From Candidatus Iainarchaeum sp. (GTDB lineage: Archaea > Iainarchaeota > Iainarchaeia > Iainarchaeales > JACQJH01): a stretch of 32,000 nt of DNA. Below the pieces are notes generated by a model. It searched no databases. It saw only the letters and a list, made by a program, of their open reading frames with translations, and had not been told where the DNA came from. Positions 1,915-32,000 of the stretch are shown piece after piece; position 1 is the stretch's first letter, and each line of letters starts with the position of its first letter. Made by a program: the position numbers and the translations under genes. The stretch spans positions 580,964-612,963 of the forward strand of contig JACQJH010000001.1 of assembly GCA_016205145.1 (NCBI GenBank), given 5' to 3'.

Positions 1915-2847
1915 ATGGCGAAGGATGGCAAGGCTGTAAAAAAAACCAGTGCAATTGATTTTTTGACCGGCAAGGAATTGTCGCCGAAGCAGGCTGAAAA
2001 GCTTTTGGATTTGGCAGTGAATGTCAAAAAGAATCCGGCAAAATTTTCCGGCGCCTTGAAGAACAAGACTCTTGCAATGCTTTTCCAGAAGACTTCGACG
2101 CGCACGCGCATGTCGTTCGAAGCGGGAATGACGCGCCTGGGCGGGCATGCGATTTTCCTGGACTGGCGCACTACAAACCTCGCGCTTGGCGCGCTGAAAG
2201 ACGAAGTGAAGTCGATGGAACGTTATTCCGACATTCTGATGGCGCGCGTTTTCAAGCATGAGGATATCCTTGCAATAGCAGAGGCCTCGTCAAAGCCGGT
2301 CATAAACGGCTTGTGCGACAAATGGCATCCGTGCCAGGCTCTCGCGGACTATTTGACGGTCAAGGAAAAGCTTGGCAAGGTGAAGGGCAAAAAGATTGCG
2401 TTCGTCGGCGACGGCAACAATGTGTGCAATTCCCTGATTGTGATTGGCGCCTTGCTGGGGGCAAAGGTTTCCATTGCAACGCCCAAGGGATTTGAGCCTT
2501 CGCAGGACGCGGTTTCGTTCGCAAAAGGCCTTGGCGCCGAACTGTTCATTTGCAATGATGCTAGCCTGGCGGCGAAAGGCGCGGACGTCGTTTACACTGA
2601 CACCTGGGTTTCAATGGGCCAGGAAGCGGATGCGCAGAAAAAGAACGAGGCGTTCAAGCCGTTCCAGGTGACAAGGGAAATTCTTGGCAATGCTTACTTC
2701 ATGCACTGCCTGCCGGCGCACCGCGGCTATGAGATGACAGACGAAGTGATTGACTCGCCCAAGTCGATTGTTTTCGACCAGGCGGAGAACCGCATGCATG
2801 CGCAAAATGCTTTGATTCTTTGGATGCTTGGAAAGGCAAAAATTTAA
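1915..2847 (+). CDS. argF: ornithine carbamoyltransferase
   Basis: Motifs STRTRMSFE, HPCQALAD and HCLPAHRG. ATG 1915 is 1 nt after the argH stop, with AGGTGA 5 nt upstream. The track ORF start at 1882 would overlap argH. Confidence 0.9.
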   Translation: MAKDGKAVKKTSAIDFLTGKELSPKQAEKLLDLAVNVKKNPAKFSGALKNKTLAMLFQKTSTRTRMSFEAGMTRLGGHAIFLDWRTTNLALGALKDEVKSMERYSDILMARVFKHEDILAIAEASSKPVINGLCDKWHPCQALADYLTVKEKLGKVKGKKIAFVGDGNNVCNSLIVIGALLGAKVSIATPKGFEPSQDAVSFAKGLGAELFICNDASLAAKGADVVYTDTWVSMGQEADAQKKNEAFKPFQVTREILGNAYFMHCLPAHRGYEMTDEVIDSPKSIVFDQAENRMHAQNALILWMLGKAKI

Positions 2848-2873
2848 CGAAAATGCGGTGTATGTTTGGGGTC

Positions 2874-4067
2874 ATGAAAATGGCAAGCTTCAGGGTTTTG
2901 GATGGAAAAGGCATTACCTGCGTGAAAGGCATAAAGGCTGTAGGAAAGTTTGCGGGCATCAAGTCGAGCCGCAAGGACTTCTGCGTTGTCGCTTCAGATG
3001 CGCCCGCCGCAATGGCCGCTGTTTTCACGCAGAACACCGCGCGCGCGCCGCCCGTCATTCTCGGCTTGGAGCGCCTGAAGCATGGAAAATGCCAGGCATT
3101 GAATGTCGTTTCCGGCGTAGCGAATGCAGGCACCGGAAAGGAAGGCTTGAAAAACGCAAAACTGCAGGCGAAACTTCTGGCTGATGAACTTGGCATTTCT
3201 GAAAAGCTTGCCATGGTGGGTTCGACCGGCATTATCGGAAAGCAGATGCCCATGGCAAAAATCGAGTCCGCGATGAATGGCGTGAAAGGCGAATTGTCTG
3301 ATTCGGAGAAGGCGGGGATGTCTGCGGTTGAGGCGATTATGACAACTGACACGAAGCCGAAGTTCATTGCGGTCCAGGCGAACGGTTTTGCCGTTGCGGG
3401 CATGGCGAAGGGTTCCGGCATGATCGCGCCCAATATGGCGACAATGCTTTGCTACATTTTCACGGACGCCGCCGTTGGGCAGAATGATTTGCAGGCAGGC
3501 CTTTCAAAGGCTGTTGAAAAAAGCTTCAACTGCATTTCCGTTGACGCGTGCGAGTCGACAAACGATACCGTGCTATTGCTTGCGAACGGCCTGTCCGGAA
3601 AAAGGCCTTCGCAAAAGGAATTTCAGGAAGCATTGGATTTTGTCTGCCTGGATCTGGCTAAAAAAATCGTTTTGGATGGGGAAGGCGCAAGCAAGATGTT
3701 TTCCGCGACAGTCAGGGGTGCAAGGGATTTTGGCAAGGCGAAGGAAATGGCTCTGGCCATTGTAAAGTCAGACCTTGTCAAGACCGCGGTTTTCGGCAAC
3801 GACCCGAACTGGGGGCGCGTTTTGCAGGCAATCGGCCAGACGCGCATTCCATTCGAAATGGAAACGCTTGCCATTTTTTTCGGAAAGGTTCAGGTTGTGA
3901 AAAACGGCCTTGCCGCGGACTTCAATCTGCAGGCAGCGCAGACGGAAATGTCGAAAAGCGGTTTTGAGATTATCGTGATTGCGGGCAACGGAAAAGGCGA
4001 GGCAACCGCTTACGGCTGCGATCTGACTGAAGGCTACATCAAGGTCAATGCGGAGTACCCGACCTGA
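2874..4067 (+). CDS. argJ: bifunctional ornithine acetyltransferase / glutamate N-acetyltransferase
   Basis: ArgJ self-cleavage and nucleophile block PNMATMLCYIFTDA. I chose the first ATG after the argF stop; the track ORF starts at TTG 2820. Confidence 0.88.
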   Translation: MKMASFRVLDGKGITCVKGIKAVGKFAGIKSSRKDFCVVASDAPAAMAAVFTQNTARAPPVILGLERLKHGKCQALNVVSGVANAGTGKEGLKNAKLQAKLLADELGISEKLAMVGSTGIIGKQMPMAKIESAMNGVKGELSDSEKAGMSAVEAIMTTDTKPKFIAVQANGFAVAGMAKGSGMIAPNMATMLCYIFTDAAVGQNDLQAGLSKAVEKSFNCISVDACESTNDTVLLLANGLSGKRPSQKEFQEALDFVCLDLAKKIVLDGEGASKMFSATVRGARDFGKAKEMALAIVKSDLVKTAVFGNDPNWGRVLQAIGQTRIPFEMETLAIFFGKVQVVKNGLAADFNLQAAQTEMSKSGFEIIVIAGNGKGEATAYGCDLTEGYIKVNAEYPT

Positions 4068-17664: not shown

Positions 17665-17950
17665 TAAGGGCAGCGGGTGGTAAGCCGCCTTCTGTTCTGA
17701 ACTGGCATCCGTCTAAGCGTGCGACAAAGGCACTTGCACTGCAGCCTTTTCCGGCCGTTTCATCCTCGCGAAAAGAAGCTCAATTTTTTATCATCGTGCC
17801 TTTCCGCGGGTTCGTTTCTGTTCCGGAAAACCGGGAAACCCTTTCGGGTTCCCTTGGCTTAAGCAGTGGGCGGACTTTCCTCAGCCGAAAACCATTGAAG
17901 GTTTTTGCCGCATTGAAGCGGCTTGGCCGTGAGCCAGCCTCCCGCTACCC
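17665..17950 (-). ncRNA. rnpB: RNase P RNA (archaeal)
   Basis: The minus strand reads GGGTAGCGGGAGGCTGG...GGCTGAGGAAAGTCCGCCCAC (CR-I) ...GGATGAAACGGCC...CAGAACAGAAGGCGGCTTACCACCCGCTGCCC. The P1 helix (GGGTAGCGGG with CCCGCTGCCC) and the P4 helix (AAGTCCGCC with GGCGGCTT) can both form. A TATA box is centred about 27 nt upstream of the 5' G. Confidence 0.85.
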
Positions 17951-22071: not shown

Positions 22072-22111
22072 GACGGACTTTCGTTTCATTGTTCGCATAA
22101 CAATTAACTCT

Positions 22112-25080
<2,969 letters not shown>

Positions 25081-25118
25081 AAAGCCAGAAATAACGAACA
25101 ATGAATGAACTTTCTGTT

Positions 25119-25147
25119 CGGAACCGCTTTGTGGGAATGCCTATGCA
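25119..25147 (-). other. 5' arm of the 23S processing stem (bulge-helix-bulge)
   Basis: See 22043-22071. Confidence 0.8.
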
Positions 25148-25557
25148 TGGGGGCAACTTCGTTTCCCCCTATTACCCCCTTCCTCTTTTGAGAACGTAGG
25201 AGATAAAAGAAAGAAAACAATGCTACTCCCCCATAGCCTTCCCCTTGCGGAAAAAGCCATGGTTTGCTTCCATGAAAACTCCTTTCAGAGAACTAATCAT
25301 GGGAGGGCCAACGGCCCAGGTAAACGCACTGATGAAAACCGCAAATGCGGAAAAAAATATGATTTTACTTCTTCGCTTTCTTCTTCGGCCAGCCCTTCGG
25401 CCTGGCTGCAGGCGCTTCAGGCTTTCCGCCAAAAACGCTTTTCACGAAATCCATGAAACCCATTGTTTCAGACTCCCTTTTTTTCTTTTTTTTTTACCCG
25501 GCACATTGCGAAAGCAATGCGCCTTGGTTTCGGCACACGCGCCCGAAAGCGCGTGCT

Positions 25558-25630
25558 TGGACCCGACGGGATTCGAACCCGTGGCCTCCGCGATGCAAAC
25601 GCGGCGCTCTACCAGCTGAGCTACAGGCCC
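25558..25630 (-). tRNA. tRNA-Ala (anticodon UGC), CCA not encoded
   Basis: The cloverleaf folds by hand. Acceptor stem GGGCCTG/CGGGTCC includes the G3:U70 alanine identity pair. D arm is GCTC..GAGC. Anticodon stem is CCGCG/CGCGG with loop TTTGCAT. T arm is ACGGG TTCGAAT CCCGT. Discriminator is A. Confidence 0.93.
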
Positions 25631-25890
25631 TGGCCGGTTTCGTCCGGCCGGTCCGAAGTTGAGGGTTTTCGCAATGCTCAAACCCTCTGCCGGCCAAAAC
25701 AATATGCCAGGAAGACTTTTGCCCAAACTGGTTTTTATCTTTTGTGCCACGGGCAAAGCCCGCGAATACCTATGATTTGCCAACCATTAAGCGGAATTGC
25801 TTTGACCTAGTGCTTACTCGGCGTTTTGCGAAGCAAAACGCCTTAGTTTCGCTTCACGCAGCCGAAACTGCGTGCGGTCGAAAGCGCGTT

Positions 25891-25918
25891 CGGGAAATTA
25901 TAGGTTTGACTCAGCAAG
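25891..25918 (-). other. 3' arm of the 16S processing stem (bulge-helix-bulge)
   Basis: Complementary to 27518-27545. Pairing gives helix CGGGAAA/UUUCCCG, the 3-nt bulge UAA, a 4-bp helix UAGG/CCUA, the 3-nt bulge CAA, and a 14-bp helix with one G.U pair. Confidence 0.8.
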
Positions 25919-25987
25919 AAAGTATGTGCGCAGTCGGGGCCGGCCGAAGCCGGCCCTTCCTGCTTTGCCTGAATTAATCAGGCAATA

Positions 25988-27475
<1,488 letters not shown>

Positions 27476-27517
27476 GGGTTTGAAACTTCAATAGAATTGG
27501 TTTGCTTGCATTTTTGG

Positions 27518-27545
27518 CTTGCTGAGCCAAATTGCCTATTTCCCG
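27518..27545 (-). other. 5' arm of the 16S processing stem (bulge-helix-bulge)
   Basis: See 25891-25918. Confidence 0.8.
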
Positions 27546-27844
27546 AGCCTTCCACTCAAACACAAACACGGTTTTTGCAAACCATGAAAGCATCTGGCAG
27601 GCATCATACCCAAAACAACTTGGGTACTCATGGAGACACGCAGCGCATTGCTTTTGCAATGCGCTTATCGCACCGTCCCGCCGAAACGGGACAGGCGTGC
27701 CTTTTGTGAGTTTAAACCAAGAGCGCCAAAAGGCACTCTTGGAATAAAAATCCCTAATTGCCATGCGTCAAATCGGACGTCATTGCATGGCAACAACAAA
27801 AACCGTACCGGTTTTTTTGCCCTATATACATGCACCACCCGCTC

Positions 27845-27910
27845 TTTAAAAACCTATCGGGCGGGCCGGGCTTGTTTAAAAAGTTCCAAGCGCGGGCTTT
27901 TGTTAAAAAA
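27845..27910 (-). promoter_or_regulatory. three TTTAAAAA-type boxes about 30 bp apart (27845-52, 27875-82, 27903-10): candidate tandem rRNA promoters
   Basis: Read on the minus strand, they match the TTTTTAAA boxes seen upstream of leuS, dinB and RNase P RNA. They lie 370-435 nt upstream of the 16S 5' end. Orientation is ambiguous because the box is nearly palindromic. Confidence 0.35.
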
Positions 27911-27953
27911 GCCCATAAATTGCTTTTTATGTTTTTCCGCCATAAATTTTCAA

Positions 27954-28427
27954 ATGACTAATGCGGATAAAGGGTATAATTTAGTCAAAAAACTCGATAA
28001 TGGAAAAATTGCTTGTTATCAATTTGAATTTGAAGGAAAACCTATTGCGGCATATATAGGGGTTACAGTTGCAAGTGAAAACAAAATTGGTGGAGGCGGG
28101 AAAGTGGGCGCAAATCCTCTTGACCCTTCAATAAGTGCCCAAGCTATGAAAGAAAACAAAACAGAATACCAATGGGAAAAATATACGACTTCTGCATTTG
28201 CGGCAACCCACCCAGAAATCAGAAGTAAGGAAGTAAGATTGGAATTAGATAGGAAAGTTACTCAGATTTCAGGAGTTGCTGTAATGAATGCTCCGATTCA
28301 AGAACTCCCGCCTAACCAAGCTATAATTACGCCTTCGGGGGCGCTTTTGTCTACTTCTACAGGAACACTTCAAGCCAATACTGATTTTACCCTTGATAAA
28401 CTAAAAAAACATTTTACTAAATATTGA
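27954..28427 (+). CDS. hypothetical protein (157 aa)
   Basis: ATG 27954 is the first start inside the AT-rich DNA. The upstream 108 codons of the track ORF run through the G+C-rich rRNA leader and look non-coding. No family recognised. Confidence 0.6.
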   Translation: MTNADKGYNLVKKLDNGKIACYQFEFEGKPIAAYIGVTVASENKIGGGGKVGANPLDPSISAQAMKENKTEYQWEKYTTSAFAATHPEIRSKEVRLELDRKVTQISGVAVMNAPIQELPPNQAIITPSGALLSTSTGTLQANTDFTLDKLKKHFTKY

Positions 28428-28446
28428 AACCATTTCTAAGCCCGCA

Positions 28447-28514
28447 TGCAGGAGACTGCAGGAGGAAGTCTTTTAAAGAGAAACACACACCTATAGTGCA
28501 GGAGAGTGCAGGAG
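28447..28514 (+). promoter_or_regulatory. four direct copies of TGCAGGAG in two pairs flanking a TATA-like box TTTTAAAG (28471-28478)
   Basis: Copies at 28447-54, 28457-64, 28497-504 and 28507-14. Spacing is 10 bp within each pair and 50 bp between pairs. The last copy also supplies an AGGAG ribosome-binding site 4 nt before ATG 28518. Confidence 0.7.
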
Positions 28515-28517
28515 ACA

Positions 28518-29429
28518 ATGTACCCAACTATACCTACTTTAGCCACATTACCAGAAGGCCTTAAACAAGCAGTGGCAGAAAATGACTTGCCATTAGAGGT
28601 AGCACTCCAATTAACCAAATTGAATAACCCGTTTGTAAACGAGAAAATGGTTCAAGTGATAAAAAGAAAAAAGAAATATGAAAGAGACCTTTTGAAAAAT
28701 GCTTTAGCTGCCGTTAAAAAAAGTAGCCAAATGAAAACCAAAATAAATGGATTAAAAAAAATAGTTGATTCAGGAATAACTCTCTCTTCGGTTTGGGATT
28801 TTGGTAACAGAGATAACTATGCAGGCGATGCAAATTTTTATGGAAATGCTCCAACCCAAGTCGTTGAACAGTGTATTCTGAGGCTTACTAAAGAAACTGA
28901 TTTCGTTGTAGACCCTATGGCTGGTTCTGGGACAACAATCGATGTATGTAAGGCATACAACCGAAAAGTCAAAGCGTTTGATTTAACTCCGACCAGAAAA
29001 GAAGTAGTCCAAAATGATAGTAGAAATATCCCTTTGAGAGATTTTTCTACAGATTTAGTTTTTCTTCATCCGCCTTATTGGGATATGGTGAAATACTCTA
29101 TAAAACAAAATGACATATCACGACTTCCTCTAAATAACTTTTTGGATAGTATGACCCAAATCATAAATGAATCTCAAAGAATTTTGAAAAAAGATAAATA
29201 TCTATGTATCTTGATAGGAGATATAGTAAGAAAAGGAAAATTTATTTCACTATCAAGAAAGTTATCAAACATTTGTGAGAACGCAGGATTAGAAGATGCT
29301 GGATACGCAATTAAGATTACAAAAGATTCTACCAGCCAAAGAAGAAGAGGAAAAGCTATATACGCAGAACTTGCGGCAACAAAAAATTTGAAGCAAAATC
29401 ACGATATAATTATGTTTTGGAAAAAATGA
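28518..29429 (+). CDS. SAM-dependent PPY-type amino-methyltransferase (probable DNA N6-A/N4-C methylase) with a ParB-HTH-like N-terminal segment
   Basis: Motif I FVVDPMAGSGTT lies about 52 aa before motif IV LVFLHPPYW, with acidic motif II/III residues between (KAFDL, QNDSRNIPL). The N-terminal LPEGLKQAVAENDLPLEVALQLTKL resembles the helix pair after the ParB HTH. The track start is GTG 28506; ATG 28518 is preferred. Confidence 0.8.
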   Translation: MYPTIPTLATLPEGLKQAVAENDLPLEVALQLTKLNNPFVNEKMVQVIKRKKKYERDLLKNALAAVKKSSQMKTKINGLKKIVDSGITLSSVWDFGNRDNYAGDANFYGNAPTQVVEQCILRLTKETDFVVDPMAGSGTTIDVCKAYNRKVKAFDLTPTRKEVVQNDSRNIPLRDFSTDLVFLHPPYWDMVKYSIKQNDISRLPLNNFLDSMTQIINESQRILKKDKYLCILIGDIVRKGKFISLSRKLSNICENAGLEDAGYAIKITKDSTSQRRRGKAIYAELAATKNLKQNHDIIMFWKK

Positions 29430-30143
29430 TTATTCTTTTGATATTTTTACCAATTCATTTTTTTGTTGTTCGGTTTTACTTTTTTCATATTCTTTTTTTC
29501 CATTCACAAATTCTTGAACTGCATTGTCAGGCAACGGGTGTACCCCTTTCCCATCAATTCGTGCCATTTTTATTTTTCCGCCTACGTCACCATCAATACT
29601 AATTGTTTCAACCATTGTTTTAGCAACTAAAAAACACATTTCATCTACTCCATAATTTTTATCATATTCTTTTGACAGGATATAACGTGCAATGAAGGGT
29701 TTGCCTTCAGCAACTGTATTATCCCCTCTTCCCGAGAAAAACAAATTTTCACTTCTTAAAACATAAATTTTTGGCATAACTTTAGTTTTTATTTTATCTA
29801 ACCCTGCGATAATTATTGTAACGCTTGGAAAACTTTTACTTCGTGGGTTTATAGTATCTGATATATGGGAAATTTCTTTTTTACAAAATCTTTTAAATTC
29901 AGAAACAACATCAGTTACATACCATTTTTTTGTTTTTGAATATTTATATTTAAAATCTTCTATTAACTGCATGGCTATCTCAGGGTCACCTGCAACTAGC
30001 GCACAAGAATAATCAGTCAATTGAATCATTTTTTGCGCAACTAAAGATTCCATTCTCGAACCGTCGTTATCTACCCACGTTCCTTTACTATCCGCAGCGA
30101 GAACTAAATAATCTTTTCCAGATACCGCAATAACAAGTGTCAT
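29430..30143 (-). CDS. stand-alone proteasome-beta/HslV-like Ntn peptidase
   Basis: Begins MTLVIAVSGKDYLVLAADSKGT. This places Thr directly after Met (Thr1) and Asp at mature position 17, with a QKMIQL lysine matching the Lys33 region. Overall length and block order resemble archaeal proteasome beta (my recollection of the Thermoplasma sequence). It has a K/E-rich C-terminal tail. Confidence 0.7.
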   Translation of the reverse strand: MTLVIAVSGKDYLVLAADSKGTWVDNDGSRMESLVAQKMIQLTDYSCALVAGDPEIAMQLIEDFKYKYSKTKKWYVTDVVSEFKRFCKKEISHISDTINPRSKSFPSVTIIIAGLDKIKTKVMPKIYVLRSENLFFSGRGDNTVAEGKPFIARYILSKEYDKNYGVDEMCFLVAKTMVETISIDGDVGGKIKMARIDGKGVHPLPDNAVQEFVNGKKEYEKSKTEQQKNELVKISKE

Positions 30144-30147
30144 ACTT

Positions 30148-30711
30148 TCACGTTTCCTTATTTACTCTTTGTGTCACAAGACTTGTTACAATTTGATTAA
30201 TAGTTTTATTTTGCTTTTTTGCTATTTTTTTTAATTTTTCAAATTGCTCATTTTCTAAGGAAACAACAACTAAGTTTAATGTGGCTTTTAGCTCCTTTGA
30301 CTTTTTTAATCGATTAATTTGATTTTCTATTGAGACCCCGCGATTATTTTTTGCAAACCTTATCATATCCCTTGCATCGTGTGCACTAAGCCCAACTATT
30401 GAGTTAGCAATTCTTATTTGGTCTTCTTTGTTTTTGATTGCTAACAGCCTCCAACCCAAGTCTTGAGTAATTTTATTTTCTTTTATTAATTGCTTTATCT
30501 CTGATGGCAAATCTAAAAGTTTTATAGTAGAACGAACCATTTCTCTGGACAATGAAAGCAACTTTGCAACTTTTCCATCAGACTTATATTTATCTTTAAG
30601 CTCCTTGAATTTTTCGGCTAAAAATATCCAGTCGTGGGTTTGTTTTCCTTTTGCCTTAAAATTAGAATATATGATGGCAAATATTTCATCTTCATCAACT
30701 TTTTTAGTCAT
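30148..30711 (-). CDS. ParB-HTH-only protein with a C-terminal ribbon-helix-helix-like segment
   Basis: KVAKLLSLSREMVRSTIKLLDLPSEIKQLIKENKITQDLGWRLLAI is a ParB HTH-domain pattern, and no ParB/Srx N-domain is present. The C-terminus LNLVVVSLENEQFEKLKKIAKKQNKTINQIVTSLV fits a beta-alpha-alpha (RHH) pattern. There is an ATGA overlap with the upstream gene. Confidence 0.7.
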   Translation of the reverse strand: MTKKVDEDEIFAIIYSNFKAKGKQTHDWIFLAEKFKELKDKYKSDGKVAKLLSLSREMVRSTIKLLDLPSEIKQLIKENKITQDLGWRLLAIKNKEDQIRIANSIVGLSAHDARDMIRFAKNNRGVSIENQINRLKKSKELKATLNLVVVSLENEQFEKLKKIAKKQNKTINQIVTSLVTQRVNKET

Positions 30712-31541
30712 TCTTCTTGTCCCCTAACGTAACCCTTGATTATTTCGGTGAGAAGGTCTTCTATGCCAATTTTATTTTTACTATTGTTTGCAATTCCTTG
30801 AATTTTATCGAAGTCAGACCTATCAACTAAAACAGTGAGTTTAATTTTTCTGGAAGGTTTTTTTGCCTCGGCTAATATTTCTTCAATAGATGCATCTTTA
30901 TTTTCCATACCCACATCTAGTATATTATCCCATTCTGGTTTTGTCATTCCTATCATATGTCTTGCAATTTTCACGATTTTTTCCGATTTTGGCCAAAAAG
31001 CAGTAGTTAATTTATAGGCTTGTTTCGGGTCAAGTTTTTTTTCAGCTACCATGTCTCTTACTTCTTTTGGTATGATTCGGTAAGAGAGATATTTAGTAAC
31101 TGTTTGAAGAGATAAACCAACATCCGCAGCTACTTGTTCTAATCTCTTTGATTGCGTCCCCGTATACTTACTAAATAATTCATCACATACTCTAATAGTG
31201 TCATTATACGGCAGTTTTGTTCTATTGACATTTTCAGAGAATGAAATAATTCTTTTTGTTAACTCATTAACATTATTGATTAATATTGCTGGAATTTCTT
31301 CTCGTTTTAATTCTTCGAATGCCCTAAATCTTCTTTGCCCTACAAGAACTTTGAATTTTTTATTTCCTTTTCCTTCGGTTAAAAGTATGGGGTGGATAAG
31401 TCCGACATTTTCTATACTCGCTTTTAGCACATCTAGATTATTTTTTCTACCTTCAGTTCTAACATTTAAAGTGTCAACTTCAATATCGTTAATGTTTGCT
31501 TCAAAATATTTTCTATCTTTTATATAGTCAAGTGTAGCCAT
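30708..31541 (-). CDS. ParB/Srx-domain protein with HTH and a C-terminal ribbon-helix-helix-like segment
   Basis: The ParB N-domain shows the arginine patch VLVGQRRFRAFEEL (GxRRxRA type) and IHPILL. The HTH is QVAADVGLSLQTVTKYLSYRIIPKEVRDMVAEKKL. The C-terminus is KLTVLVDRSDFDKIQGIANNSKNKIGIEDLLTEIIKGYV. ATG 31541 is preceded by AGGTGA. The track start at 31568 is less likely. Confidence 0.8.
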   Translation of the reverse strand: MATLDYIKDRKYFEANINDIEVDTLNVRTEGRKNNLDVLKASIENVGLIHPILLTEGKGNKKFKVLVGQRRFRAFEELKREEIPAILINNVNELTKRIISFSENVNRTKLPYNDTIRVCDELFSKYTGTQSKRLEQVAADVGLSLQTVTKYLSYRIIPKEVRDMVAEKKLDPKQAYKLTTAFWPKSEKIVKIARHMIGMTKPEWDNILDVGMENKDASIEEILAEAKKPSRKIKLTVLVDRSDFDKIQGIANNSKNKIGIEDLLTEIIKGYVRGQEE

Positions 31542-31549
31542 ATAGTCAC

Positions 31550-31846
31550 CTAGTGGGTGGCATTCCAATTATCTCGTAAATTTTTCCATTCTTCAATAGT
31601 TATTTCTTTTCTGCCTAATTTACTATTTATCTCAGAAATAAAATCGCCATAGTCTTTAACTTTTTTATCTTTTTGTTCAGCCTTTTCCACTTCCGAACTT
31701 AACTGTTCAATATCTTTGATGTCGTGATTTATCGAAAAGTGTTTCAGGATATCCTTAAATTCGCATTTACAAATTGGGCAAAAATTATTTGTCAATCTAC
31801 CACCTTGTTTTTTGTCTTTTTGAAACCCCTTTGACTTAAAGCCCAC
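31550..31846 (-). CDS. small C2H2-type zinc-finger protein
   Basis: CPICKCEFKDILKHFSINH gives the pattern C-x2-C-x9-H-x4-H. The maximal ORF starts at GTG 31846. The more likely start is TTG 31795, which overlaps the TGA stop of the upstream 50-aa ORF (TTGA) and follows AAGGTGG. Confidence 0.6.
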   Translation of the reverse strand: MGFKSKGFQKDKKQGGRLTNNFCPICKCEFKDILKHFSINHDIKDIEQLSSEVEKAEQKDKKVKDYGDFISEINSKLGRKEITIEEWKNLRDNWNATH

Positions 31847-31944
31847 TTAAAAAGCTTGGTTGGGCTTATTTGATTATTTTCAAGAAACTTCTTTTCATCG
31901 TTAGTTAAGGAAACGGAAACCCATTTAATTCCAGAATTAGCCAT
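31792..31944 (-). CDS. 50-aa ribbon-helix-helix-like protein (below the ORF-track size cut-off)
   Basis: Hand translation gives MANSGIKWVSVSLTNDEKKFLENNQISPTKLFKWALSQRGFKKTKNKVVD. The beta strand (KWVSVSL) followed by two helices fits an RHH pattern. It is the first gene of the operon and sits downstream of an AT-rich, TATA-rich region (31945-32000). Confidence 0.5.
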   Translation of the reverse strand: MANSGIKWVSVSLTNDEKKFLENNQISPTKLFKWALSQRGFKKTKNKVVD

Positions 31945-32000
31945 ATATGCCAAATTATATAAGTTATACAATAACTTTAAAAGCTTATTATATTATATAA

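Follow-up and report, generated by a model that had tools for sequence, protein, structure and literature searches.

The terminal 32 kb of contig 1 of a Candidatus Iainarchaeum sp. assembly (JACQJH010000001.1), a stretch analysed at its full length of 32,000 nucleotides and called the window below, carries at its right end a cassette of small genes that is a mobile, recurrent unit, so far found only in archaea, whose parts are almost never apart. Its core consists of a full-length ParB protein (ParB-L), a second ParB-type protein that lacks the ParB/Srx N-terminal domain (ParB-S), a stand-alone peptidase of the proteasome-beta type (Pep), and a DNA-modification enzyme, and it usually includes a C2H2-type zinc-finger protein as well. 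An original prediction, made from the letters of the window, had grouped seven genes here as a candidate undescribed system; the core just named survives comparison with related loci, while the remaining two members, a 157-aa open reading frame (ORF) and a 50-aa protein, do not belong to it. The composition does appear to be undescribed, as had been proposed, with no account of it in PADLOC or in the literature. What is new is that a proteasome-type peptidase is obligate, that a truncated ParB paralog is present, and that there is a conserved operator, while the half made up of ParB and a modification enzyme is of a known kind.

The evidence for a recurrent unit comes from loci gathered by searches from Pep and from ParB-S, followed by annotation with hidden Markov models, which gave 49 distinct loci and three more. 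The 49 loci span DPANN, Bathyarchaeia, and Nitrososphaeria metagenome-assembled genomes (MAGs) and metagenomes, and the named carriers include Aenigmatarchaeota, Micrarchaeota, Bathyarchaeota, and Nitrosotalea MAGs. ParB-S lies directly upstream of Pep in 42 of 43 loci, ParB-L is present in 33 of 34, and a DNA-modification gene occurs within 4.5 kb in every one of the 22 loci with enough flanking sequence; the zinc finger is found in 24 of 33, and the three further loci, which were reached from ParB-S, all hold the triad. The co-occurrence outside this locus on which the original prediction depended is thus found in about 50 loci from several archaeal phyla. No other recurrent gene family (nuclease, helicase, or ParA) was found in these neighbourhoods. 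The cassette forms a low-GC island in several hosts, often adjoining transposases, and in several loci it has restriction-modification (RM), HEPN, PIN, or Shedu-like genes as neighbours. Its distribution within the host phylum is sparse, with a Pep relative in two of 215 species genomes. In a cross-genus survey, the 84 carriers consisted almost wholly of distant proteins of the proteasome/HslV type, which fell in the lowest score band, so that the count of ParB_N neighbours there is uninformative; true Pep relatives were seen in that survey in Aenigmatarchaeota and Nanobdellota only, with fewer than three in each.

The modification enzyme is exchangeable around this constant core. Among the 22 loci with enough flank, four have a methyltransferase gene and 18 have a gene of the PAPS_reduct (3'-phosphoadenosine 5'-phosphosulfate (PAPS) reductase) family, and all loci of the non-methyltransferase type encode a PAPS-reductase-family enzyme, of which there are three subtypes. 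The methyltransferase-type loci make up one clade on the Pep tree, which includes the window (support 100/99), and the methyltransferase that had been named as the partner of the ParB and peptidase genes has that place in this clade, with a PAPS-reductase-like enzyme instead in most relatives. The commonest PAPS subtype matches SspD from end to end (E 1e-33, its best PADLOC match), with weaker matches to BrxP and DndC, and the PAPS gene is either first in the operon or convergent with Pep, like the methyltransferase gene in the window. The enzyme in the window is a circularly permuted beta-class N4/N6 methyltransferase, with motif I (DPMAGSGTT) ahead of motif IV (HPPYW) and both invariant in the alignment. 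It matches PDB entry 2zie in two swapped pieces, the N4C methyltransferases 8s9m/8s9n match too, and PADLOC models of type II methyltransferases also recognize it. Its reading as an amino-methyltransferase is upheld by PF01555, whereas the ParB-HTH-like (helix-turn-helix, HTH) N-terminus attributed to it is weak (hhalign 57.6%); the N-terminal domain of about 90 aa is conserved and lysine-rich. A search for a cognate restriction endonuclease gave no strong match, the sole marginal one being that of the zinc-finger protein to the PADLOC model REase_II (E 0.0063). A divergence from the usual arrangement is seen in locus L073 (8259-10249), on a 1.4-Mb contig, where a 172-aa ORF without a family match converges on Pep and is followed by an IS240-type transposase gene; the ORF may be a modification gene disrupted by insertion.

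A conserved operator precedes the modification gene. In the window, copies of TGCAGGAG start at 28447, 28457, 28497, and 28507; the window contains six copies against 0.85 expected, and tandem pairs of the motif are unique in the 1.25-Mb genome. Counted over the whole genome, the conserved site occurs 59 times against 40 expected and is neither depleted nor enriched. Four repeats bracketing the promoter of the 157-aa ORF and methyltransferase gene pair had been described earlier; the repeats are real, but they lie between the two genes and therefore bracket the methyltransferase's own TATA-like box and not a promoter of the pair. A GTG at 28506 was considered as the methyltransferase start, as the residues MQE seemed conserved, and was rejected: the upstream repeats are copies of the operator, and the alignment of homologues begins with the ATG at 28518. 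The methyltransferase-type loci L004, L005, and L017, whose proteins are just ~55% identical to those of the window, have two tandem TGCAGGA(G) pairs, 10 bp or one helical turn apart, around a TTTTAAAG-like box before the start codon, and in Bathyarchaeota, Nitrososphaeria-type, and unassigned loci the PAPS gene is preceded by two to eight TGCAGGA(G) copies. Motif clusters occur in 18 loci of both enzyme types, always on the coding strand and immediately upstream of the modification gene, at a density of 17.9 per kb in promoter windows vs 0.35 per kb elsewhere. Some loci have the variant motifs AGCAGGA or GCGGGA, and the clade with the most divergent proteins, which has no zinc finger, has GGAAGAGA repeats in an identical layout. 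A motif that is kept across phyla and that changes in step with the proteins points to a cognate DNA-binding protein from the cassette itself, and the conserved HTHs of ParB-L and ParB-S are the candidate readers. The zinc finger was also considered for this role and is unlikely to fill it, given that the divergent clade keeps the operator layout without it.

ParB-L and ParB-S had been described as a full ParB protein and a paralog without the N-terminal domain, and profile, hhalign, and structure searches all agree with this. ParB-L is the sole ParB_N protein in the genome and scores 71.9 bits against the partition-type ParB model TIGR00180, which is above the cut-off. Its AlphaFold2 (AF2) model has a predicted local distance difference test score (pLDDT) of 85, and the best fold matches are ParB, Noc, and KorB bound to CDP or CTPgammaS; matches by sequence and fold include 7bnk, 7nfu, and 8qa8/8qa9, and Foldseek also returns 6sdk. 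Residues G68, R70, R71, A74, E103, N104, and R107 are invariant in 12 homologues and make up GQRRxxA and ENxxR boxes that align to GERRWRA and ENLQRE of Noc. On this sequence and model evidence, ParB-L looks like a ParB/Noc/KorB-type nucleotide-binding, clamp-like protein. Its one PADLOC match, to a type II methyltransferase model, is weak (E 1.5e-4). ParB-S aligns to the C-terminal part of ParB-L with an hhalign probability of 98.8%, which identifies the two as paralogs. ParB-S belongs to a separate family with about 117 clusters, in which scores drop from 112 to 48 bits at ordinary ParBs, and its match to RHH_4 (ribbon-helix-helix, RHH; E 2e-4) is below the family cut-off. The metagenomic locus L054 has one more ParB_N gene (2208-3089, E 6e-13), placed downstream of Pep where the modification gene would usually be.

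Pep had been called proteasome-beta/HslV-like. The proteasome-beta fold and the catalytic threonine stand, but HslV is not the closest relative: the best 60 PDB sequence matches are all 20S subunits, mainly beta with a few alpha and none of them HslV, and the closest is the beta subunit of M. jannaschii (3h4p). An AF2 model (pLDDT 88) likewise has 20S beta subunits as its top fold matches. The equivalents of Thr1, Asp17, and Lys33 (T2, D18, and K38) are each present in 46 of 46 Pep homologues in which the region is present. The protein begins with Met-Thr, and therefore has no propeptide, and it ends in a charged helix. No AAA+ gene for an HslU-type partner was found in the loci, and no alpha-subunit gene is present in the cassette. 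The host has canonical proteasome alpha and beta genes elsewhere, which makes Pep an accessory (third) paralog. No Pep relatives were found in IMG/VR viral contigs. The only other Pep-positive genome in the host phylum is G111, where the relative lies between Shedu SduA_C-like and tyrosine recombinase genes (locus L029, G111:C20, 5558-9260).

Several known systems share parts of this arrangement. ParB-L has the fold and the nucleotide-binding boxes of the ParB and Noc clamps and of KorB, which works with KorA on RK2, and like KorB it appears, from the position of the repeats, to act at promoters without a ParA partner. The cassette differs from these in having 8-bp direct repeats in place of palindromes, an RHH-like C-terminus, a Gln for the Glu of the GERR box, and a partner paralog without the N-terminal domain; it is also archaeal, and a peptidase and a modification enzyme always accompany it. 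DpdB, DndB, and GmrSD are ParB-type partners of modification enzymes, and DndB is a negative regulator of modification (PMC12839542); the IbrA/IbrB pair is found on viruses (PMC8813620, PMC4490671). As in IbrB/IbrA, DndB/DndCDE, DpdB/DpdA, and the ParB-methylase fusions, a ParB-family gene here adjoins a gene for a PAPS-reductase-type enzyme or a methyltransferase on mobile elements. The neighbourhood of a ParB gene and a PAPS gene, of the IbrA/IbrB type, is found in the 18 related loci, while the window has a methyltransferase, which is separate and not fused as in the ParB-methylase proteins. IbrA itself has a DUF3440 domain. The IbrB/IbrA, DndB, and DpdB pairs and the fusions lack a proteasome-type peptidase, a truncated ParB paralog, and a repeat operator, all of which the cassette has.

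The exchange of a methyltransferase for a PAPS-reductase-type enzyme is shared with BREX type 1 vs type 4 and with Dnd/Ssp, and the PAPS partner best matches SspD, BrxP, and DndC. BREX also has a protease-like component, the Lon-like BrxL. The cassette differs from all of these in having no PglZ, BrxC, BrxA/B, DndD/E, SspB/C, or restriction partner, and in its size of only four to five small genes, of which PADLOC matches the modification enzymes alone. With 20S beta subunits, HslV, Anbu, and BPH, Pep shares the N-terminal nucleophile (Ntn) hydrolase fold and the residues Thr1/Asp17/Lys33. It also resembles HslV in having the catalytic Thr right after the start Met, but it is closest to archaeal and eukaryotic beta subunits; unlike 20S beta, it is encoded away from alpha and PAN, is fixed in a ParB operon, and has the C-terminal charged helix. 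PRTRC offers another parallel, in that a ParB-family protein stands in a mobile cassette with enzymes of the protein-modification or protein-degradation type, and ParB-L matches the PRTRC ParB model with E 9e-12, far below the cut-off. PRTRC, a ParB-related and ThiF-related cassette of conjugative elements, is bacterial and has E1-like and JAB-type components, no proteasome homologue, and no DNA-modification gene.

The reading that we favour, and to which we give an even chance of being right, is that of an autoregulated, ParB-assisted DNA-modification (epigenetic marking) module with built-in proteolysis, carried by a mobile element. In such a module, the ParB-type HTH proteins would bind the repeats and meter transcription of the modification enzyme, much as KorB acts on RK2 promoters and DndB on the dnd promoter. 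ParB-L might double as a nucleotide-dependent partner that loads the modification enzyme onto DNA, for which the ParB-methylase fusions, IbrB/IbrA, and DpdB/DpdA would be precedents, and Pep would turn over one of the cassette's own proteins, be it ParB-S, ParB-L, or one of the small regulators. The level of modification would accordingly start high when the element enters a new host and be throttled later, and the net role of the module would be to protect or mark the DNA in which it resides. A number of points weigh against this picture. The canonical Glu of the GERR box is a Gln in ParB-L, which, judging by ParB mutants, may slow CTP hydrolysis. ParB HTH dimers normally read palindromes, so that direct repeats are unusual, and the HTHs of both ParB-L and ParB-S change in the clade with the altered motif, so that no single reader is singled out. 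In L003, a locus of the methyltransferase type, the repeats are absent and a small RHH-like gene lies ahead of the methyltransferase gene. Pep relatives at about 95 bits occur without ParB, as does the closer relative (137 bits) in G111, which lies beside a Shedu-like nuclease gene and an integrase gene. A purely regulatory role would also be modest for a peptidase that is invariant and catalytically intact, and the invariance of its residues hints at an effector function.

An effector role for Pep is what a modification-dependent immunity of the BREX/Dnd/Ssp kind would give it. The enzyme would mark resident DNA, ParB-L would load on or clamp unmodified incoming DNA, and Pep, as effector, might degrade invader or host proteins, or silence or abort the infection. 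A core that stays constant while methyltransferase and PAPS-type enzymes are swapped is also seen in BREX type 1 vs type 4 (PMC12839542), and this pattern, the sporadic, mobile-element-linked distribution, the RM, HEPN, PIN, and Shedu-like neighbours in several loci, and the invariant catalytic residues of Pep are all consistent with immunity. We nevertheless consider it somewhat unlikely, as the loci share no nuclease, no helicase, and no other recognised effector, PADLOC gives nothing for Pep or ParB-S and one weak match for ParB-L, and the sole conserved DNA site lies in the promoter of the system itself and is neither depleted nor enriched genome-wide. A further proposal, which is unlikely in our estimation, is a new archaeal class of genome-defence or self-marking system in which a nucleotide-gated ParB clamp would read the modification state from its loading site and would control, or be controlled by, a proteasome-type peptidase that perhaps docks on host alpha rings. 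Such docking would explain the archaea-only occurrence, and from this archaeal restriction Pep may use host alpha rings.

The compact, selfish-element context with a transposase, the translationally coupled genes, the converging methyltransferase and Pep genes with 0-5 nt between their stops, and the small RHH-, AbrB-, or MazE-like first genes in several loci would also suit an addiction or post-segregational module, in which Pep continuously degrades a labile, DNA-binding, antitoxin-like protein, either ParB-S or the small RHH/AbrB-type protein, and loss of the element frees an activity that does harm, as when ParB-L nicks or clamps DNA whose modification has been lost. This seems quite improbable, given that there is no recognisable toxin, that ParB-L resembles a CTP-binding clamp and not a nuclease, and that the small regulators are not conserved across loci. 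Partition or stability without ParA, with the TGCAGGAG arrays as centromere and ParB-L as the centromere-binding protein, could draw on the score of ParB-L above the TIGR00180 cut-off (71.9 bits) and on the resemblance of the repeat arrays to type Ib centromeres. It is very improbable, however: the loci are chromosomally integrated, the repeats are always placed at the modification gene's promoter, Pep and the modification enzyme would both be left unexplained, and no ParA or ParM is present in the element or the 49 loci, the nearest thing being an unrelated CbiA-like gene 1.1 kb away in L005. That AT-rich genes came together by chance or in an assembly chimera, which the position of the island at a contig end beside an rRNA operon and its GC content of 31% vs 51% in the host might suggest, is hardly credible, as some 50 loci from many samples share the gene order, the junction is bridged by contigs from three runs with zero differences, and matching inverted repeats link the contig ends.

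Much work has been done on ParB clamps and on proteasome homologues alike, and the cassette ties the two into a single operon across archaeal phyla, with their catalytic motifs intact. We know of no system tying ParB CTPase clamps to proteasome homologues, and if the proposed defence or self-marking class with peptidase control were real, it would connect ParB clamps functionally with proteasomal proteolysis for the first time. The conserved DNA site offers a direct experimental handle on the cassette. The same core combined with a methyltransferase or with three PAPS-reductase/SspD-like kinds of enzyme is a clean natural experiment, which bears on the unexplained pairings of IbrA/IbrB, DndB, and DpdB. 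For DPANN, Bathyarchaeia, and ammonia-oxidising archaea, in which very few functions of mobile elements and of defence are catalogued, the cassette is also a compact addition.

The features of the window are collected in the table. The five minus-strand genes are tightly packed, and all four junctions are exactly as they were first described. The TGA stop of the 50-aa gene overlaps a TTG within TTGA, and this TTG opens the zinc-finger frame; the start of the zinc-finger gene is likely this TTG, at 31795. The TAG stop of the zinc-finger gene is followed by 8 nt (GTGACTAT) and then by the ATG of ParB-L at 31541, with AGGTGA spanning this stop. The ParB-L and ParB-S frames share ATGA (30711-30708), and the stop of ParB-S is followed by 4 nt (AAGT) and then by the ATG of Pep at 30143. 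The stop codon of Pep (29430-29432) abuts that of the methyltransferase gene (29427-29429) with 0 nt between them, which leaves no space for a terminator, so that the converging transcripts must overlap or collide. The convergent stops are 1-5 nt apart in the other methyltransferase-type loci (L003, L004, L005, and L071).

Table. Genes and sites of the cassette and its element in the window (positions on contig 1 are those of the window; strand is left as a point where neither applies).
Feature	Position	Strand	Match or description
Left terminal inverted repeat	27859..27914	.	outer module 27859-27885 and inner hairpin module 27894-27914
157-aa ORF	27954..28427	+	no Pfam, NCBIfam, PADLOC, or PHROG match
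Operator	28447..28514	+	two tandem TGCAGGAG pairs, 10-bp spacing within a pair, 50 bp between pairs, around TATA-like TTTTAAAG at 28471-28478
DNA amino-methyltransferase, 303 aa	28518..29429	+	PF01555, E 8e-20
Pep, stand-alone proteasome-beta-type Thr peptidase, 237 aa	29430..30143	-	PF00227, E 3e-10
ParB-S, 187 aa, HTH_ParB and RHH-like tail, no ParB/Srx N-domain	30148..30711	-	HTH_ParB, E 2e-11
ParB-L, 277 aa, ParB/Srx N-domain, HTH_ParB, and RHH-like tail	30708..31541	-	ParB_N PF02195, E 1e-12; PF17762
C2H2-type zinc-finger protein, Cys-x2-Cys-x9-His-x4-His and helical tail	31550..31846	-	C23, C26, H36, and H41 invariant in 11 homologues
50-aa protein, first gene of the operon	31792..31944	-	RHH-like pattern (strand-helix-helix)
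Divergent promoter region between operon and transposase gene	31945..32000	.	cut by the contig end, resumes at contig 2 position 1

The small genes are more variable. The C2H2 finger had been predicted, and its Cys/His pattern is indeed invariant among the homologues; the nearest named Atlas clusters are C2H2/Di19 fingers, at the level of a lead. Where it is separated from the repeat promoter, the ZnF-ParB-ParB-Pep operon has a small extra first gene and locus-specific palindromes, and the extra first gene is RHH-like in the window and in L004 and AbrB/MazE-like elsewhere. In the window this is the 50-aa protein, whose gene and junction are as described, while the RHH fold proposed for it has no family match in Pfam. 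A homologue is found in L004 alone, in the same position between the transposase and zinc-finger genes, and the protein is probably a locus-specific regulator. Two operon promoters carry palindromes that differ from the TGCAGGAG operator: that of L005 (1104-1189) has three copies of TCTATATAGA, about 37 bp apart, and that of L004 (8121-8191) has an inverted pair of TATACAAATTATA. No homologue of the 157-aa ORF is present in the related loci, and it is cargo of the element, unique to this locus and outside the conserved system. A 57-aa protein is conserved beside the transposase gene in L005 (1198-1371) and L017 (7605-7802), and seems to belong to the transposase and not to the cassette.

The host genome is archaeal, was recovered from groundwater metagenomes, and consists of two contigs with a total of 1.25 Mb and 51% GC. 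To the left of the cassette lies an rRNA operon on the minus strand (16S / tRNA-Ala(TGC) / 23S, 22111-27474), and from about 27860 to the contig end the GC content falls from ~51% to ~31%, giving a foreign-looking island that runs off the contig. Contig 1 stops at 32000, and contig 2 opens inside a DDE transposase gene (DDE_Tnp_1, PF01609). The encoded transposase is 42% and 39% identical to transposases that stand divergently beside the same cassette in two unrelated metagenomic loci, and it is homologous to the cassette-adjacent ones in L004, L005, and L017. The outer module of the left inverted repeat is the reverse complement of contig 2 1189-1215 at 24 of 27 positions, and the inner module that of contig 2 1138-1158 at 21 of 21; this inverted-repeat pair is the sole such pair genome-wide, with no further copy. 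From the transposase on contig 2 and the unique matching inverted repeats at both ends, 27859-32000 and the first ~1215 bases of contig 2 are most probably a single transposon of ~5.4 kb.

There is no direct overlap between the end of contig 1 and the start of contig 2. The gap between them, which is short and inside the element, is probably only tens of bases, because the matching intergenic region in L004 is 94 nt. The divergent promoter region that it interrupts has a TATA-like TTTAAAAG and a motif TTATACAAT that is mirrored by ATTGTATAA at the start of contig 2, and the region between the operon and the transposase gene in L004 has an analogous inverted repeat. A conventional parA just past the window, which would have counted against the original prediction, is not there: contig 2 gives the transposase and the right inverted repeat, and no ParA, integrase, replication gene, or nuclease lies within the ~5.4-kb element. 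No target-site duplication is evident at the element ends in its own genome, and a search for inverted repeats in L003, L004, L005, and L017, made around the cassette together with the transposase gene or around the transposase gene by itself, gave nothing convincing. The left junction between host and island is crossed by independent contigs from three runs with zero differences, and is therefore no assembly chimera, which tells against the assembly artefact that had been named as a possible refutation of the original prediction.

The element is inserted ~385 bp upstream of the 5' end of the 16S gene, in or near the rRNA promoter region. Contig depth over 27400-32000 in runs X1 and X2 is ~37-39 in the host flank and in the island's left half and 14-23 in its right half; the lower depth could reflect AT bias, or some members of the population may lack the element. 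On its minus strand, at 17669-17949, the window also has an archaeal RNase P RNA. At the opposite end of contig 1 (1-3200, L013), the sequence begins inside a tRNA-like sequence, after which come DNA of lower GC content and a gene for a tyrosine recombinase (Phage_integrase, E 6e-45), and this looks like a second integrated element. Four further low-GC islands (31-39% vs 51%) are found on contig 1 at ~388-391, 511-514, and 564-570 kb and on contig 2 at ~405-409 kb.

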